DNA of 64,000 nt from a virus. Taxonomy: Duplodnaviria; Caudoviricetes. The stretch covers positions 321,935 through 385,934 of the IMG/VR virus record IMGVR_UViG_3300028591_000070, one strand, 5' to 3'. This document shows positions 5,246 through 21,868 of this stretch, one piece after another. Within the stretch, counting starts at the first letter, position 1; each line of letters opens with the position of its first letter. The notes beneath the pieces are model-generated. The model had not been told where the DNA came from. It saw only the letters and a program-made list of their open reading frames with translations, and ran no database searches. A program made the position numbers and the translations under genes.

Positions 5246-5986
5246 TTACTCCTCTGTGGCCATAAGAGCCTTTTCTCTATCCTCAGCAGCTTTCTTTTCA
5301 GCCTTCAATTTTTCAGTACGTTTATTATTTGCAGACTTAATTTTCTCTTCAACCTTAAAGTTATCTTCAAAGCTCTGTTTAAGTTCACCACCATCTAGAG
5401 TATCTTTGTCATAAACACACTCAAGAGAAACCAATTCCTGAGCATTATAAGGATAACCATCTGGACATTTGTTCATATGATACTCAACTTCATATAAATA
5501 CATATCTGAGTCATTAAATGGCCAAATAGGCTTTAGTGTAGGCTTTCTATCTCTAACATCTTCAATATAAGCGGAGTTATCCCATTCTAGAGTATATTCT
5601 CCTGGAATTTTAGTAATAGCATCCTTAAATGTAATCTTATAGAGAATGCCCTTACTATTCATAAAGTGCAAAATAACAGTAGCATCATATCCTAAAGATT
5701 TTCCTGTAAGCTTTGCAGATTTGAAATTACTGATGTTTTCAATAACAAGAGGCTCGATAAAAGTAATTGACATTGTGTTAGCATGACTATCAAATGGTAC
5801 TTTTGTAAATACCTGAATAGATGAACCAGTACTCTTAATTCCTTTGTCAAGAGTAGACTGGCTAGTATTCAAAGTTACCATAATGTTATCATCTGTCAAC
5901 TCACCAAAACTAAATGATTTGGACTCAGCAAAAACTGAGCCCATTACTGCAAAAATTATTGCAAATAAAAAAATTCTCTTCTTCAT
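5246..5986 (-). CDS. flaA: spirochete flagellar filament sheath protein FlaA homologue
   Basis: Sec signal peptide; IENISNFKS, LEWDNSAYIEDVRDRKPTLKPIWP, VYDK and the terminal ATE match the Treponema FlaA pattern as recalled (KNVGTIKS..WNNPAYI.EVR.RELR.YPLYP..IYDK..KLATE). Confidence 0.7.
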   Translation of the reverse strand: MKKRIFLFAIIFAVMGSVFAESKSFSFGELTDDNIMVTLNTSQSTLDKGIKSTGSSIQVFTKVPFDSHANTMSITFIEPLVIENISNFKSAKLTGKSLGYDATVILHFMNSKGILYKITFKDAITKIPGEYTLEWDNSAYIEDVRDRKPTLKPIWPFNDSDMYLYEVEYHMNKCPDGYPYNAQELVSLECVYDKDTLDGGELKQSFEDNFKVEEKIKSANNKRTEKLKAEKKAAEDREKALMATEE

Positions 5987-5993
5987 AAAGATA

Positions 5994-6001
5994 ATATTAA
6001 C
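5994..6001 (-). promoter_or_regulatory. GTTAATAT motif upstream of flaA (one example of 9 copies)
   Basis: same octamer 6-30 nt before ATG at 1457, 3030, 8946, 11695, 20798, 26381, 31156 (-) and 61818 (+). Confidence 0.6.
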
Positions 6002-6003
6002 AA

Positions 6004-6636
6004 TTATCCTTCTTCTTTTTCTGAGCAGCAGTCGCAGTCACATTTATAGATTGGCTGCTTTTCTAAAACATCTGCACTTAAAAGATTTTCTTCTCCATTT
6101 GAAGATGTAGAGATTTCACTGTAAGAAGGGAGTACGATTAGTAAGTTTTTATAAGTAAGGCGTGCTTCTTTTACATTCTTATTTTCATTCAAAAGCTTTT
6201 CTACTTTATTAAAGTATTTAACAACCTCATCACTTGTTTTTAATAAATTTGTTAATTCTTCTGAGAAAACAACTTCTATTGAGATAGATGATTTCATGTA
6301 AAATAGATAATCTTCATCTAATTTTGGAGTTAAATTATCAGCGATATCAAAAGTTGATTCATTTGGTTTAAGGCCTGTAGAAGATTCACTTACGCCATTA
6401 TCTTTTACAAAAACTTTATACCATCCATCATTTATTGTCTCAATAATTTTTGGAAAAAGCTCTACTAATTTTTTACCTGTTAAAGTTTCAAGGTCTTCAT
6501 TTGCAAAAGAACCCACAACTCCAGATTTTTCGCCTGTTCCAAAAATAACATTGGTAACAAAGTTCTTATACTTTTCTTTATAGCTTTCAATAAGGTCGTG
6601 GTCCTTTTCAATCATACTTGGTAATCTTAATGCCAT
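6004..6636 (-). CDS. hypothetical protein with a Cys-rich C-terminus
   Basis: ORF with RBS AAGGAG. Confidence 0.6.
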   Translation of the reverse strand: MALRLPSMIEKDHDLIESYKEKYKNFVTNVIFGTGEKSGVVGSFANEDLETLTGKKLVELFPKIIETINDGWYKVFVKDNGVSESSTGLKPNESTFDIADNLTPKLDEDYLFYMKSSISIEVVFSEELTNLLKTSDEVVKYFNKVEKLLNENKNVKEARLTYKNLLIVLPSYSEISTSSNGEENLLSADVLEKQPIYKCDCDCCSEKEEG

Positions 6637-6654
6637 TTTATTTATCTCCTTCTA

Positions 6655-7665
6655 TTAGTCGTATTCTTTAATAATATTTAATTCAATCTTATCAATCCAA
6701 TGCAATTTTCTAGGCTTAGTTCCATCTGAATAATGGAAAACAGATGTTGGATAATAAGTTCCTGTTTTAACCAATCCCATTGGGAATAAAATGTCTGCCT
6801 CATCACCTGATATTTTTTCATCAAATGCGAATGTATTATCAGAATAAGTTCTCTCACCTGTGTAGTGATATTCTCTAGAATAACTATCACCATAAGCTTT
6901 TAAATACATTCCAACATTTACTGTAAGAGTTCTTGTGGCTTCATCATATTTTGTACTATAAGCTTCATAAGGAAGATCTTCTTTTTCAAAATAGTCATTC
7001 AACTGTTTATTATAAGTGAGTGACTGATAATAATCTTGATATGGTCCAATAATGTCATCTTTAATACTACGCTCAAAGCCAACACTTTCATCTAGAGAAT
7101 TAGACCCAGAAACTTGTGATTTTACCTCTTCAAAAAGATCATATAACTCATCATAAGAGTCGTATAATTCGGCTGCTAAATCTTCACCTTCTTTTGATAC
7201 CAAAGACTGAATAGCAAAAGCATTTAATTCTGCAGGACTTCTGAGATAATCAATATCATCAATATCTGACTCATGTGATTCATCTGTTCCGAGTTTATCC
7301 ATACGAGCTAAGTGAGTAGCCTCATGCCAAATAAATGGTTCGGCAACTTCAAACATTTTTTTAAGATTTTTAAGGGATTTCCAGAATACTGGACAGAAAT
7401 AAACAATAATAGCTGTATCATAGCTATTATCAATATGATGTAATTTTGCTCTTGCAATAGTGTCCATATCTAAGTTTGGGTCTGCAATTAAAACTACTTT
7501 TCTACTAGGATTTGTACAACTTTTAGATTTGCTGAATAAATCAGCAATAAAATCCTCATGCCCTTCCAAAGATTTAATATAATAATCTCTTATATCATAT
7601 AACTCTTTTAGATATTCTTCAGCATAAGGAGCAACTTCATTTTTAGTTAAAAACTCATTACTCAT
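6655..7665 (-). CDS. putative zinc metallopeptidase-like (HExxH) protein, possibly virion-internal
   Basis: IWHEATH...YLRSPAELNAFA. Confidence 0.55.
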   Translation of the reverse strand: MSNEFLTKNEVAPYAEEYLKELYDIRDYYIKSLEGHEDFIADLFSKSKSCTNPSRKVVLIADPNLDMDTIARAKLHHIDNSYDTAIIVYFCPVFWKSLKNLKKMFEVAEPFIWHEATHLARMDKLGTDESHESDIDDIDYLRSPAELNAFAIQSLVSKEGEDLAAELYDSYDELYDLFEEVKSQVSGSNSLDESVGFERSIKDDIIGPYQDYYQSLTYNKQLNDYFEKEDLPYEAYSTKYDEATRTLTVNVGMYLKAYGDSYSREYHYTGERTYSDNTFAFDEKISGDEADILFPMGLVKTGTYYPTSVFHYSDGTKPRKLHWIDKIELNIIKEYD

Positions 7666-7857
7666 AAAGTAATTAGTAATTTTATTTATTATCCTTATAC
7701 TTCAAAAGACTTTCAGCCCATTTATGGAAAAATGCATAAGCTTGATTATTTTTTAATAGTTCTTTATGCCTTTTTTGAGATACTTCTTCAGCTGATAAAT
7801 GCGATTCTTCTGGAAATTTATATATCAAATACTCAGAAATTGGCAAAGGCAAACAAA

Positions 7858-8256
7858 TCATTTTTCTTCTCCATGTAATAAAGCGTGCATTTGCCTACCA
7901 TAAACCCACTGATAAGCTAAATACATTGCTATATCACACTCTAGCTTCTGTTCTTCAGTGTCAGCACCAGTATAAAAAGTCTGTTCGGCTCCCATAGCTT
8001 CTCTCAATATTTCTCTTTGCATAGAAATATCTATAATATTTTTCTCGACAAAATAAGCAAGAATTTTTTCACGAGTGTTGAAATATTTTCTATCAGTTTC
8101 ACCATCTACAACTAATGGAACAGCAATCATTTTTGGGCTTTTATTAAGCTCTTCAATAGCCTTAATCGCATCTTCTATAGCTTGTTGACTATTTGCATCT
8201 TCAATTGCAATTATTCCGAGTTCGTCAATTTTATTCTGTAATTCTTCTTTTGTCAT
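7858..8256 (-). CDS. hypothetical protein
   Basis: ORF with RBS. Confidence 0.55.
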   Translation of the reverse strand: MTKEELQNKIDELGIIAIEDANSQQAIEDAIKAIEELNKSPKMIAVPLVVDGETDRKYFNTREKILAYFVEKNIIDISMQREILREAMGAEQTFYTGADTEEQKLECDIAMYLAYQWVYGRQMHALLHGEEK

Positions 8257-8416
8257 TTTTCTATCTCCACCTCAAACCCATCAATCATCATTTGGTCTAA
8301 AGCATCTGCTAAAAATTTTGGACTAATAATTGGCTTATCATAGTCCTCATCCTGTTTACATAAATGAAATTTTATACAATTGATGATTTTTATTGTAAGT
8401 TGTTTTTCATTAGTCA

Positions 8417-8938
8417 TCATACATTAAAAACTATATTCCTTGGGTCTGATTTATAACTATTTTCACTAATAGACTTATCAATCCGCTGCCATAGAAGAGC
8501 ATAAAACTCAAAATCAACTGAAGTGTGATGTTCTTTACCTAATTTAAAAGCTTGATTATATAAGTCTTTTACTTCATTAAAATATTTTATATGCTCTTCT
8601 TTTTCGCATTTAGCATCATATAAATCTCTTGCTCTTTCAATTTGACCATCTGTTAAAAACATATAAATATTATCATGATCCAACTCTTCATAAAGTTCAA
8701 TTAATAAGTCATCAGAGTTTTCTTTTGCCAAATCTTCTTGAATATGCTTATGAGCACAATCTTCACAATATGCATTATATCTTTCAGGTATACGAGAACA
8801 AAATAAGCCATGTTCTTTTCCACAATCTGGGCATGTAGGCCTTTTAAAAGTAATTACATCATCAGACTTACTACCCAATAATTCATCAATATCTTTGTTT
8901 GGATCATAAATTGGTATACCAAATGTCTTTTCTTCCAT
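8417..8938 (-). CDS. zinc-finger hypothetical protein
   Basis: CPDC...CEDC. Confidence 0.6.
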   Translation of the reverse strand: MEEKTFGIPIYDPNKDIDELLGSKSDDVITFKRPTCPDCGKEHGLFCSRIPERYNAYCEDCAHKHIQEDLAKENSDDLLIELYEELDHDNIYMFLTDGQIERARDLYDAKCEKEEHIKYFNEVKDLYNQAFKLGKEHHTSVDFEFYALLWQRIDKSISENSYKSDPRNIVFNV

Positions 8939-8965
8939 AAAATAAATATTAACTTCTAAATAAAA

Positions 8966-8987
8966 AAGGTGAGCAAAAGCCCACCTT
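8966..8987 (-). terminator. terminator after the flagellin gene
   Basis: AAGGTGAGC-aaaa-GCCCACCTT hairpin followed by a U-tract on the minus strand. Confidence 0.6.
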
Positions 8988-9007
8988 CTATAAAGTTTTA
9001 CTAAAAA

Positions 9008-9855
9008 TTATTTCAACAAAGCCAAAACATTCTGAGACTGAGAATTTGCTTGTGAAAGAATAGCTGTAGCAGCAGAAGATAAAATCTGATTCTTAGTGTG
9101 TGAAACAATAGCTTCTGCCATATCAGTATCACGAATACGCGACTCGGCACTTTGAGTATTTTCAGCAGCAACATTGATACCTTTCTGAGCCATTTCCATT
9201 CTGTTCTGGTAAGCACCTAAATCAGCGCGTTGTTTATTTACATTCTTAAGAGCAGCATCCAAAGTTGCAATAGTAATATTTGCTTCATCTGGAGAATTAA
9301 TAGAAATTCTCTCATCTGTTCCCTGAATACCTGTAAGTCCCAACGCCTGAGAAGTCATTGTACCAATATAAGCACGGATATTTTGGTCTGCATTTGCTCC
9401 AATCTGGAACTGCATAACTGTGTCAGACTCTTTTGCAAATCTTCCAGTTAAAAGGTTCATTCCATTAAACTGAGCAGAAGAAGCAATTCTATCAACTTCA
9501 GCTACAAGCTGAGACACTTCGACCTGGATTTGCATGCGATCTTCATCTGAGTAAACACCATTTGAAGCCTGAACTGCCAATTCACGAATTCTCTGAAGAA
9601 CATCTGTAGTTTCCTGTAAATATCCTTCTGCCACATTTGTAAATGAAATTGCGTCTCCAATATTTCTAGATGCCTGATTAAGGCCTCTAATCTGTGAGCG
9701 CATTTTTTCTGAAATTGAAAGTCCTATGCATCATCACCTGCTCTATTAATCTTTTCTCCAGAAGCAAGTTTTTCCATCGATTTCTGAAGAGCCTGAGCAT
9801 TAATTCCTTCCTGGCGACTAGCAAAAAGACTAGACATGCTGTGGTTTATCACCAT
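9008..9855 (-). pseudogene. flaB: spirochete flagellin FlaB interrupted by a 1-bp deletion after codon 43
   Basis: 9855-9727 encodes [43 protein letters not shown] then TAG; another frame continues [19 protein letters not shown]... to VLALLK; strong RBS AAGGAGG at 9864-9870. Confidence 0.9.
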
Positions 9856-9873
9856 AATAAAATCCTCCTTGAT

Positions 9874-10053
9874 TTAACATCCACATCTGGATTCAAATCC
9901 TACATAAGTTTTTCTAATCTTGGCTTTCTGTTCCTCATTTACAGTAAATATTCCAATTATTTCCATATTCTTACCATAAATGCGCAAACAATCTTTTCCA
10001 AAGAAAACATAACAACTGCAATTTTTCATCAATTCTGCTATTTCTTCTTCCAT
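9874..10053 (-). CDS. 59-aa hypothetical protein, not in the ORF track (MEEEIAELMKNCSC...)
   Basis: translated by hand; fills the gap between the holin and flaB. Confidence 0.5.
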   Translation of the reverse strand: MEEEIAELMKNCSCYVFFGKDCLRIYGKNMEIIGIFTVNEEQKAKIRKTYVGFESRCGC

Positions 10054-10072: not shown

Positions 10073-10447
10073 TTATTTCTTTACAATTTTTTCTGACTCT
10101 TCTACAATCTTATCAGCAATTTCTTCTGCCAAAGACTCTGGGTCAACAGCAGCTTTTTTAGTAAGAGCAGCCTTAACAGCCTTAAATGTCTGGAATAATA
10201 GAGTATAAGAAGTCTGTGTAAGAGCAACTACTCCACCTGCAAAAATGATACGAGTTACAATAGAAACTGTCGCACCAAAAATTTCAGGAGCAAGGAATGT
10301 TGTTCCAAATCCTGCTGCAGCGCCAATAACAGCTGCAATAGCTGCCATTGCAACACTGTTTTCCTTTACTTTAGCTGGAAGAAGGTTCTTAAGCCATTCT
10401 GTGATACCAGCTACACATACTGCTACAATAAATGCAATCTTAAACAT
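10073..10447 (-). CDS. putative holin
   Basis: 124 aa, 2-3 hydrophobic helices, GITEWLK motif, charged C-tail. Confidence 0.55.
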   Translation of the reverse strand: MFKIAFIVAVCVAGITEWLKNLLPAKVKENSVAMAAIAAVIGAAAGFGTTFLAPEIFGATVSIVTRIIFAGGVVALTQTSYTLLFQTFKAVKAALTKKAAVDPESLAEEIADKIVEESEKIVKK

Positions 10448-10468: not shown

Positions 10469-11038
10469 TTAGTTCTTTTTATTTTTTACAGTCTTTCTAT
10501 AATAATTTTCTTTATCATTCAAAGATAGCCCGAACTCATAACCACCTTTCAAATTACCTAAAGCGCGAGTTTTACTTTTAATACCGGCTACATCAAAATT
10601 ATCAATAAGATAATCTAAAACTTGTCTCTCAACAGCCTCTAGATAGTCTTTATGAAACTCAGAAAACTGTGAGTTTGGATATATGATTGTTGGATAATAA
10701 TCCTTAAATAAACCTTTTTTAGTGACAATAATGGCATCACTACCATCAGAGTGTCTTATTCGAATCACTCCCCAAATCTTTTCACCAAAAGTGTTTACCC
10801 ATTTATCAGTTCTAAAAAGAATTCGATCTTCTTTAAGTTTAATGTCAACAATCTCACCACTAGATAAATGAACATGATCTTCTGGAGCCCATGTAGGTTT
10901 TACTGGTGTTCCAAAAATAAATTCATGGTCTTTATCTACATCTAAAGATGCTCGATAGATAATATCAGTTGCATTGTTAATACATTTTTGAATTTCTATA
11001 AGTTTATTTATCCGTTCTTTTATCATCATTAACTCCAC
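10469..11038 (-). CDS. hypothetical protein
   Basis: ORF in operon. Confidence 0.55.
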   Translation of the reverse strand: MELMMIKERINKLIEIQKCINNATDIIYRASLDVDKDHEFIFGTPVKPTWAPEDHVHLSSGEIVDIKLKEDRILFRTDKWVNTFGEKIWGVIRIRHSDGSDAIIVTKKGLFKDYYPTIIYPNSQFSEFHKDYLEAVERQVLDYLIDNFDVAGIKSKTRALGNLKGGYEFGLSLNDKENYYRKTVKNKKN

Positions 11039-11690: not shown

Positions 11691-11725
11691 TTAAATATTA
11701 ACACTTTTACAGGTATAATCTATAT
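11691..11725 (+). promoter_or_regulatory. early promoter, probably leaderless, driving the paralogue array
   Basis: TTAAAT-17-TATAAT-CTATAT-ATG. Confidence 0.65.
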
Positions 11726-14370
11726 ATGTTAGGATTGTTTAAACATAAAGTTATTGAAGAGGAATGCGAGCCCTTAATGACATTAGAGGAATTTCAGGCA
11801 GTACGCAGAAAAGAAAATGACTTTCTCAATCCAGCAGCGCTTGAGGTTATGAAAGAAACATATGGTTCTATTAAACTAACCAGAAAAGAATGGGACGAGT
11901 TATGGGACAGCTGTGCTTTTGTTCTTTATCTTGAGCGTCTTAAAAAATTAGATTTCAGGAATAGAAATGAATGATGAATTGATAGATGTTGAAGATTATG
12001 AAAAAACTCTCACTTGGAATTACTATAATGTAAGTGCTTTTAATAAGTTTAAAGAAATATATAAAGATATTAAACTTGTTAAAGAAGAATGGCAAAAATT
12101 ATGGGAATCAGTAGGTTTAGGCTTTGTTATAGAATCTATTAAAGGTTTAATGGAAGAAAAATATGAAACAAACAGCAATCATATCTATTGACCAGTTTAA
12201 AGATTATGCTACACATAAGTTTTTCTTCAGTGAAAGAGCATTTTCTAAGTTTAAAGAAACATATAAAGATGGTGAGCTCACACTAGAAGAATGGGACTCA
12301 TTGTGGGAAGAAGTTGGTCCTACTTATGCATTAGATTCTCTTAGGGAGATTTTTGATGAATAATGAAATAACATATACTGAGATAGAACTTACTCATAAT
12401 AAAGCAATTTTATTAAAAGACTTTCTAGAAGAATATGAACAGAAATATGTGAGGTCTTGGAGAATTCCTGAAAAGTTTAGAGCTCTTTATTCAAAATGCA
12501 CGCTAACCTATGATGAATGGGTCAAATTATTTATTATGTGGATTCCAGGAGAGATTCAAATATGAGTACTTGTATAAAGCATATTATCCCAATAGAAGAA
12601 TTTAATAATAAATTGTTATCTCTTGATGATTTTGCAAAAGTTCTCAGAGAAGGACTTCCTGGAGAATATGTATATTATATTCCTGAGTTTGTTGAGACAG
12701 CCTATAATAAACAAAAGTTTACTTTAGATGAATGGATTGATTTGATAAATGGTGTTATGTCAATAGAACCAGCTGAAAGAGCTTTAATAACATATCGCAT
12801 TATTACAAAGGAAAAGCCTTATGACGCACATTTGTAAAAAACGAGATAAATGTCTTGCTTATCCAGACATATGTCAAGGATGTTTAGAAGCAGAAGTTAA
12901 TGAACTCTTAAGCTTTGAAGATTTTGAAGAAACTTGCACAAATATTCCATGGGGATTTGCTGATATTTATAGAGGATGTTTATTAAAATTTGAAGAATGG
13001 CTGGAATTAAAGGTTAATTACGACTCTTTAGATGACAATGCAAGATTTGGTTTAATAGCTAAAGCTAAGGTGGATAAATTTTGCAACTAAAAGAAAAACT
13101 CAACTATGGAGAATTTAAAGAACTTTATAATAAAGAGCACCATCTAATACCTACTGGATTTAGATATTACAAAGATTCAGTTCTAACATATCAGGAGTGG
13201 GTGGACTTAATAGATATTTTCCTGGATTTAAAAGACACAGAAAGGTATGAAATTATAGATGCAGCTAAAAAAGCTTTAGCTGAGGAGACACTTTATGGAG
13301 TATGGAGCAAGTATTGAAATAACAGCTAAAACGCCAATAAACTTTGTGACCTTTATGAATAAATTTGGAAAAGGATTACAACTTCCAAATGGATTTTCTG
13401 AAGTTTATATAACAAGTGACAGTGAATTGTCTGCTTTTGAATGGCATACACTCATACAGTCCTATATGGACTCATATAATGAAAATAAATTTATGGATGA
13501 ATAAAGATGTTTAGATTTAAGACTAGAAATAAAATATTATCTATGGCTGATCTTTCTCTCAAATACCCAAAGGTTTATCAAAACGTACCTTTAGGATTTC
13601 TTACAATATATAGAGACGAAGAGCTAACAATTGAAGAGTGGCTCAATTTAATAGCGGCATTTAGTTTATTAGATGTGAATGAAAAAATTAAAATGTCTGG
13701 AGAAGTATATGCAAAAAGACAGTTGGAAAATGCTTAAACAAAAAATGGCCAAACTATATTCTCTAGAAGATTTTATGACAAGATTTCCTTATACTATATC
13801 TACTATTATAAATAGTGATGCTTTTATAGAAATTTATAAAGACACTAAACTGACATTTGATGAATGGCATGAACTTTGTCACACTTTTGAGGAGGCTTTT
13901 TAAAATGAGTGAATTCATGTGGCCACCAGAAAATATAAATATATCTATCTACGAAAATATTAGTGAAGAACCGATATCTATTCAAGATTTTGCTGGTCAA
14001 CTTCCTACTAAGCATGTTATTCCAGCATTAGCTTTTCTCATTTATAGAAAACAGAAACTCTCATATCGTGAATGGGTGGACTTAATTCTTGGACTTAAAA
14101 AAATTGATAAACAAGAACAAATAGCCATGGAATCAAATTATATTGCTACTCATAAAGAGGAACTTGCAGATGAAGCTCTTGACTTATCTTGAATTTAAAC
14201 AAGAATGGAGTCCTAATGAAATTCCATGGGGATTTTCGACAGTATATGCTAATTCTAGCATAAAGTTAGAATTTTATGAATGGGTAGATTTAATGGTCGC
14301 ATTTAATCAGTTAGATTCTGATTCTAAACTAGATGCAGCAATTTTTTCTATAAAAGAAGAAAACAAGTGA
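11726..14370 (+). repeat. operon of 12 tandem paralogous small ORFs (starts near 11726, 11967, 12163, 12353, 12562, 12821, 13081, 13295, 13507, 13730, 13905, 14170)
   Basis: shared core [LI][ST]xx[DE]F...(IPxG)F..Y...L[TS]xxEWxxL in 57-95 aa products; overlapping stop/start codons. Confidence 0.85.
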
Positions 14371-20942: not shown

Positions 20943-21868
20943 TTAAATCTTTTCAAGCCAATCAAGAACTTCCTGACAATCTAAAGAATGAAAGCTACTG
21001 TCGTCAGTAAAACACCTAGCTGTTATGTCTTCGTCGTAATCAAAATAAAAGAAAACACCACATTCTTTATTGCCTTTATTGAAATACACTTCGTACCAAT
21101 CAATATAAAAAAGTTCGTCTGTAATTTGATATTTTTGAGAAATTGCCGTTCTTAAAGTTGTTGCTTTTTTAATATAGCAATCTAGATTAGACTGGATAAG
21201 CTCCATCTGTTTTTTAAGCTTATCTTCTTTTTTATGATAATATTCTAAGACCTTAAATAAATACTCCTGAAAATCTTTTGGTTTTTTCATTAAAGCTCCT
21301 TTACTCGAATTTCTTGAATATCTTGAACTCGAATAGAAATACCACAAGACTGAGAAGTAAGAAAATCTCCCCAGTCTTCAGGCATAAAACATCCATGATC
21401 GTAACAGCCACCTTCTTGTCGACAATTTAGGCATGGATTTTTTGTATGATGAGATAATTCCGAAACATTTACAATTTCAACAGAACCATTCTTATACTTT
21501 ACCAATAATTTCATAGGCAATTAAAGTGAGTCCTCTTCTCCAAAAAGACTCTTATAATAAACTTTATATTTAGCTCTAGCAGGTTTTGCCTTTACTTCTA
21601 AATAATATCTTTTATCATCAACATCTTTAGTTTCTTCAGCTAATCTTTCATATTTGACAACTTGCTTTTTCCAATAATCGAGAGACTTTTTTCGCATAAA
21701 ATTAGAGTCCATAAACAAGCCAAATATAAGTGCAAAAACCATTAGCTCAAGCACTAAAATCATAAATTGACCAATTTCATCAAGTTCCATGGTAACCCAT
21801 AGAATAAAGCCAGCTATGACTAAAAATAAAACTACGGCTATGATTACAACAATTTCATTCGGTGACAT
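20943..21868 (-). CDS. three small hypothetical ORFs (one Cys-rich, one 2-TM membrane protein)
   Basis: abutting ORFs 20943-~21290, 21290-21520, 21521-21868. Confidence 0.5.

Follow-up and report, generated by a model that had tools for sequence, protein, structure and literature searches.

Why would a large phage keep genes for two structural parts of the spirochete flagellum? This question is raised by a 64,000-nucleotide stretch of viral DNA (the window), which is the final part (positions 321,935 to 385,934) of IMG/VR record IMGVR_UViG_3300028591_000070, a single virus record of 385,934 bp with a GC content of 31.7% (genome G000). Two genes on the minus strand of the window are at issue: flaA (5246-5986), derived in shortened form from FlaA, the major sheath protein of spirochetes, and flaB (9008-9855), a short-loop spirochete flagellin of the FlaB3 class. 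An earlier sequence-only reading had suggested that such a phage may remodel, poison or mimic the host flagellum. Among these possibilities, the sequence evidence leans to incorporation of the phage proteins into the filament, and infection by phages of this clade probably involves a rebuilding of the host flagellum.

Identity of the two flagellar proteins

The flagellin at 9008-9855 matches PF00669/PF00700, and the solved structures closest to it are those of Treponema FlaB, as expected from the sequence-only reading. Full-length relatives are approximately 282-285 aa long (282 aa for the relatives of this gene) and contain the N- and C-terminal flagellin domains, D0/D1 only. Host flagellins fall into long-loop FlaB1/2 (286 aa) and short-loop FlaB3 (281-284 aa), and all the phage flagellins have the short loop after T137. 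In a flagellin tree of 30 rows rooted on FlaB1/2, the ten phage rows grouped as a single clade (98/96) nested within the FlaB3 group (100/100). The nearest host FlaB proteins are 74-76% identical and come from gut Treponema genomes, such as that of T. bryantii, while no close flagellin was found among GenBank phages, where all matches were below 60% identity. G000 carries one flagellin.

Glycosylation and contact positions were taken from the Treponema denticola filament (PMC13439194). Phage FlaB keeps the glycosylation positions S115, S126 and T137, the T171 equivalent, the D162-equivalent sheath contact and the core contacts Q88/R91/E92/D106. It does not have the loop bearing N147 and S152, which contacts the sheath.

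The sequence-only reading called this gene a clear flaB and missed a frameshift. A one-base loss after codon 43 leads to a premature stop at 9726-9724, and the longest remaining open reading frame (ORF; 9008-9703, 231 aa) starts at an internal Met. The frameshift site is not in a homopolymer and the lesion is found in this assembly only. Over the 231 residues in common, dozens of database proteins show 98-100% identity; they are 276-282 aa in length, and several of them are on contigs of 180-390 kb. The break is also the sole out-of-frame indel among 20 neighbouring genes when compared with nine close relatives carrying the same allele, and the part of flaB 3' of the break shows 0 amino-acid vs 41 silent differences from the nearest relative. 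For these reasons, a consensus error and an extremely recent loss are the two readings left for the break. As written, the product would have neither the N-terminal helix nor the export signal and so would be inactive. Ser at position 6 was considered as a second lesion and dropped, as it is found in seven full-length homologues.

The flaA gene is an intact ORF of 246 aa. The window protein itself gave no direct match in Pfam (PF04620 cut-off), NCBIfam or PHROG. Relatives of it (approximately 40% identity, E 1e-44) exceed the PF04620 cut-off, and a profile built from 17 relatives matched only solved major FlaA (PDB 9pim/10pl; E 5e-9, residues 207-336). An AlphaFold2 (AF2) model with a predicted local distance difference test score (pLDDT) of 80 was used for fold searches. 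The top three Foldseek rows were FlaA1 (9cyn, E 1.8e-7), and VIA also placed FlaA1 first (Z 11.9, root-mean-square deviation 3.5, 159 residues aligned), with the next row at Z 9.0. The predicted fold is a beta-sandwich resembling carbohydrate-binding modules (CBM-like), with FlaA as its best structural match. The PF04620 matches of the relatives, the profile match and the fold searches together identify 5246-5986 as a descendant of major spirochete FlaA. The FlaA-like protein with a signal peptide proposed earlier is thus borne out, with the Sec-type signal peptide (residues 1-20; 5927-5986, minus strand) still putative and judged by eye. The N-terminus starts with basic residues, followed by a hydrophobic core, with Ala where cleavage is predicted, and by eye these features are kept in the alignments of all full-length homologues.

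A search of 1.8 billion representatives yielded a graded series from proteins of 236-290 aa to host-type FlaA of 340-390 aa. At full-length scale, local alignments gave 21-25% identity between phage FlaA and host major FlaA; the phage protein is approximately 100 residues shorter, with two internal deletions in the alignment. All eight FlaAs from phage contigs formed a single clade (100/99), separate from both the major and the minor FlaA of hosts, though the long branches call for caution. Compared with the T. denticola contacts, phage FlaA keeps S86 (window S42), R239 (R147) and E328 (E238). K317 falls on the invariant phage K226 in one alignment and is one residue off in another. The R104 segment is deleted, and D220, D271, K280, R292 and R306 are not kept. 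As judged from these alignments, the core-contact serine is kept and most of the lengthwise sheath contacts are lost. A search of IMG/VR with patterns from the FlaA alignment found no match. One 167-aa protein (P0017) joins the N-terminal half of phage FlaA to a BRCT domain and is probably a deletion fusion.

FlaA is far more diverged than FlaB from the host copies (21-25% vs approximately 74% identity), as the sequence-only reading had noticed. Its suggestion that FlaA was captured earlier did not find support, because faster evolution of FlaA explains the divergence equally well. For each gene, the phage sequences make up a single clade that excludes the host copies, and the two clades span the same range of phages.

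Selection, distribution and exchange of the pair

Among close relatives, the ratio of nonsynonymous to synonymous substitution rates (dN/dS) was 0.00-0.03 for flaB and 0.02-0.04 for flaA, compared to 0.05-0.17 for most small neighbouring genes. By this measure both genes are under strong purifying selection. The flaB-flaA order is conserved in close relatives from several studies and many independent assemblies. The flaA and flaB genes co-occur in many large gut phages, mostly approximately 4 kb or less apart. Both are also present in phages that are less closely related and have other genes around the pair (L014-L019, L021, L108 and L141). In one complete 301-kb phage they are 51 kb apart. 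Short fragments carry flaB only (L010 and L011) or flaA only (L009). The module is accessory: a TnpB element interrupts flaA in L004-L007, and flaA of L143 has a frameshift.

IS605-type TnpB genes recur in or near the flaB-flaA region (L004-L007:6153-8423, L152:10245-11480, L141:4009-5319 and L143:7460-8653). In a rough check, the partial catalytic motifs of those near flaB looked ordinary, and one gene is beside a Y1 transposase. Most relatives have no TnpB near flaB-flaA.

Many close relatives carry a second flagellin allele at the same site. It is 281 aa long, 57-60% identical to the first allele and 57% identical to host FlaB3. The alleles exchange at exact ORF boundaries, with flanking genes 93-98% identical, and the flaA of the second-allele phages is 93-98% identical to the window flaA. 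The second allele has a dN/dS of 0.02-0.10 and is on a long branch in the phage flagellin clade. It was also found in a different phage, beside that phage's own FlaA, and L159/L160 retain the upstream gene of the source lineage. Because the second allele sits in a different phage lineage and that lineage's upstream gene is found in L159/L160, phage-to-phage exchange of the flagellin gene is shown.

The alleles can be compared at the site of window 9008-9855 in L155-L157 and in L001 and L102-L107. Record names suggest that the first allele is in rumen samples and the second in pig-gut samples. Two further ideas were dropped. Decay of FlaA upon the allele swap was suggested by L004-L007 and L143, and nine other second-allele loci (L152-L160) have an intact flaA. 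An apparent pairing of both alleles within one phage, prompted by contigs of equal length, was a coincidence of different samples.

Host, expression signals and gene neighbourhood

The large phage described in the sequence-only reading was recovered as such: the virus record is complete (100%) according to CheckV, and G000 encodes a Gp23-type major capsid protein and a DnaB helicase. Searches of G000 found no match for tyrosine integrase, resolvase or ParA, and because of this a lytic lifestyle, also proposed earlier, is a reasonable inference, although a carrier state may occur. TnpB (PF07282), CsrA and FliW likewise had no match in G000. The host is most likely a gut Treponema. A search for spacers resembling those of clustered regularly interspaced short palindromic repeats (CRISPR), comparing 20 kb of phage DNA with 401 Treponema-family genomes, gave no convincing perfect match, and therefore the host assignment depends on the flagellar genes. 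The 84 bp at window 21360-21443 are 77-79% identical to DNA of four Treponema-family genomes. They have no tRNA or Rfam match, and their minus-strand reading is a small Cys-rich ORF.

A promoter-like motif, GTTAATAT, lies 15 nt before flaA (5994-6001, minus strand), where there is no Shine-Dalgarno sequence (leaderless type), and it is conserved before flaA in relatives. The sequence-only reading had singled out this motif, and it is genuine genome-wide: 51 of the 513 ORFs have it within the upstream 60 nt, compared to 3.5 expected. It is often 14-17 nt before the start without a Shine-Dalgarno, and approximately half of the 51 genes that it heads look leaderless. In the window it also precedes SbcC-like and HD genes, and a copy at 11695-11702 (minus strand) heads the gene run from 11675 to 9008 that ends in flaB.

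Upstream of flaB are a strong Shine-Dalgarno (9864-9870), often common to both alleles, an immediately adjacent 59-aa ORF with no assigned function (9874-10053) and a gene for a 124-aa hydrophobic membrane protein (10073-10447), all on the minus strand. The sequence-only reading placed flaB after a holin transcript. The holin label is unproven and serves as a lead only, since the 124-aa protein has no family match and an Atlas lead of 0.87 to a cluster with 11% Phage_holin_5_2. An ACTAA motif 26 nt before this gene (10469-10473, minus strand) is conserved here in 8 close relatives. It marks another class of phage promoter, probably a late one, and is most frequent 12 nt before starts, among them those of very large, likely virion genes. 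The two motifs appear to be two leaderless promoter classes in G000, and transcription from ACTAA could read through to flaB. On this evidence, flaA looks like a middle-class gene with a non-structural product, and both promoter classes may drive flaB.

After flaB there is an intrinsic-terminator-like hairpin (8964-8989, minus strand), consistent with the terminator assigned to it previously. Because this terminator and six ORFs (6004-8938, minus strand), which have no assigned function and vary among relatives, lie between the two genes, flaA and flaB are not one operon. Canonical sigma-28 promoters of the host type precede flaB in some relatives (L010:2462-2490, L011:2014-2041, and L012:9926-9953 for L012/L013), with a partial one in L015. 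None of 64 host FlaB3-class genes had a canonical sigma-28 promoter, and no G000 gene had the exact consensus. Sigma-28 couples flagellin synthesis to finished basal bodies (PMC9481697).

Further along the window, approximately 12 small paralogous plus-strand ORFs (11726-14370) lie within a minus-strand region; in relatives the array varies in copy number or is absent. Two radical-SAM genes are just downstream of the flaA region in L001 (15383-17106), L103 and L104 and are absent from the window. A GGDEF protein with an intact motif is encoded at G000 236,570-237,625 (= L165:1071-2126), and GGDEF or GGDEF-EAL genes are near flaB in other phages (L108, L141 and L143), hinting at cyclic di-GMP control of host motility.

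Possible roles in the host filament

We favor, at a rough probability of 0.5, a reading in which phage FlaB and FlaA join host subunits in the periplasmic filament and remodel it, keeping or retuning motility. Phage FlaB would leave the cytoplasm through the export gate of the host flagellum, receive glycans from host enzymes and join the distal filament tip as a FlaB3-type core subunit. Phage FlaA would be exported via Sec and would bind the core through its kept contact residues, giving an altered or partial sheath, most lengthwise contacts being gone. The phage-specified filament would keep or retune swimming throughout the lengthy infection by so large a phage, with host flagellin synthesis likely falling.

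Incorporation is favored because constraint spans the whole length of the proteins, the glycosylation and contact residues and the putative signal peptide are kept, some relatives have sigma-28 promoters, and the pair stays together even 51 kb apart. The interchangeability of T. denticola FlaBs within filaments (PMC9481697) and the GGDEF and GGDEF-EAL genes were also counted for it. Several points weigh against remodelling. The two phage proteins need not be partners, because FlaB lacks the N147/S152 loop and FlaB3 forms the unsheathed distal filament in T. denticola (PMC13439194). The two genes are not co-transcribed, and the G000 lineage has no sigma-28 promoter. Disruption of flaB here and of flaA in two related lineages means that the module is dispensable at times. 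Simple supply does not explain why one site holds two deeply diverged alleles, and that a lytic phage gains from motility is an assumption.

The incorporation step is common to remodelling and to poisoning of the filament, and is itself quite likely. Poisoning, where phage subunits join the filament to disable it, is nevertheless unlikely as the outcome. FlaA would bind the core and end the sheath protofilaments, so that swimming is stopped, proton-motive force is saved or the envelope is loosened before lysis. The missing R104 segment and the five unkept contact residues of phage FlaA fit this idea, as does the location of flaB, which follows a possible late motif and the gene for a membrane protein. 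Sheath instability impairs motility in T. denticola (PMC13439194). The diguanylate cyclase-like gene in G000 can be read the same way. Such enzymes usually point away from motility. Nonetheless, a flagellin that is full-length, nearly invariant and equipped with all glycosylation sites is hardly what a poison would require. Cores of the FlaB3 type belong to normal, working filaments, and sigma-28 control in relatives imitates normal assembly timing.

Somewhat less probable than poisoning is a role in exclusion or specificity, in which a changed filament defeats competing phages that need the filament or its rotation, and the alleles mark exclusion or host groups. The swap of alleles at ORF boundaries between near-identical flanks, purifying selection on both alleles, and the origin of the second in another phage lineage, with the upstream gene still attached in L159/L160, would all suit such a role. 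The alleles could simply follow different Treponema hosts, though, and the filament, being in the periplasm, is largely out of reach of phages. For the enterobacterial FliC/TldR prophage, superinfection exclusion was ruled out (PMC13418256).

Phage FlaB could instead be a cytoplasmic decoy that titrates FliW or FliS and shifts CsrA-controlled translation, with FlaA an unrelated periplasmic carbohydrate binder. Treponema has the FliW-CsrA switch (PMC9481697), the predicted FlaA fold is CBM-like, the two genes are separately transcribed, and the same FlaA is paired with either flagellin allele. We consider a decoy improbable: constraint spans the whole flagellin and not a single binding patch, FlaA keeps filament-contact residues and its C-terminal helix, and unrelated jobs are unlikely given that the two filament genes co-occur in many phages. 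Finally, mis-assembled host DNA or decaying captured genes, suggested by the frameshifted flaB and the broken flaA of some relatives, is already refuted for the clade and highly improbable, given the same synteny across many independent assemblies, a closest host FlaB only 74-76% identical, a phage-like third-position GC of 0.25 (genome mean 0.20 +/- 0.05), phage promoter motifs, separate clades in both trees and no amino-acid change downstream of the frameshift.

The closest known system is the flagellin-remodelling Enterobacter prophage FR-phi, which encodes FliC-P and the RNA-guided repressor TldR (PMC13418256; bioRxiv 10.1101/2023.11.30.569447). Both encode a flagellin of the host's kind with the potential to alter filament make-up. 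FR-phi is a temperate prophage whose flagellin repressor is a nuclease-dead TnpB, whereas the phage studied here is a 386-kb virus with a T4-type capsid, in which neither an integrase nor TnpB/TldR was found. It also targets a periplasmic filament, encodes a sheath protein as well, and has a D0/D1-only flagellin that keeps the QRIRE core motif. By its gene content, the 386-kb phage resembles the FliC-P/TldR class in flagellin supply and is not a member of it, having no TldR and no lysogeny genes.

The Treponema filament consists of a FlaB1-3 core and a FlaA/FlaA1/FlaA2 sheath (PMC13439194, PMC9481697; PDB 9pil, 9pim and 10pl). Against this background, phage FlaB is FlaB3-class by tree and loop, and phage FlaA derives from major FlaA, with equivalents of S86, R239 and E328. 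It is near minor FlaA1/FlaA2 in size, but not in sequence. Unlike Treponema, the phage has a single core gene and a single sheath gene, with no FliW or CsrA found.

A lytic cyanophage carrying psbA keeps a selected copy of a high-demand host protein. The present case is similar in that a selected host-type structural gene is under phage or host-type promoters. It differs in that the target is a motility organelle and not metabolism, and in having two diverged alleles at one site.

In literature searches with incomplete coverage of subscription papers, phage-encoded spirochete FlaA/FlaB was not described, and the enterobacterial FliC/TldR prophage was the only case found. Documented phage control of flagella comprises only temperate enterobacterial phages swapping an external flagellin. 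Here, phages in which no lysogeny genes were found retain genes for two structural components of the periplasmic flagellum, on which swimming and cell shape depend in spirochetes. The flagellar genes also link a large and otherwise host-less phage clade to gut Treponema, and the two FlaB alleles, approximately 59% identical, together with the naturally trimmed FlaA are ready-made probes of the surfaces needed in sheath assembly. If the proteins are incorporated, lytic phages would steer host movement from inside the envelope. More tentatively, this clade of very large, apparently lytic gut phages may build a phage-specified core-plus-sheath segment into the spirochete endoflagellum, with the flagellin alleles swapped from one phage lineage to another as a specificity cassette under balancing selection. 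If this is true, the periplasmic flagellum would be a site of phage-host or phage-phage conflict.

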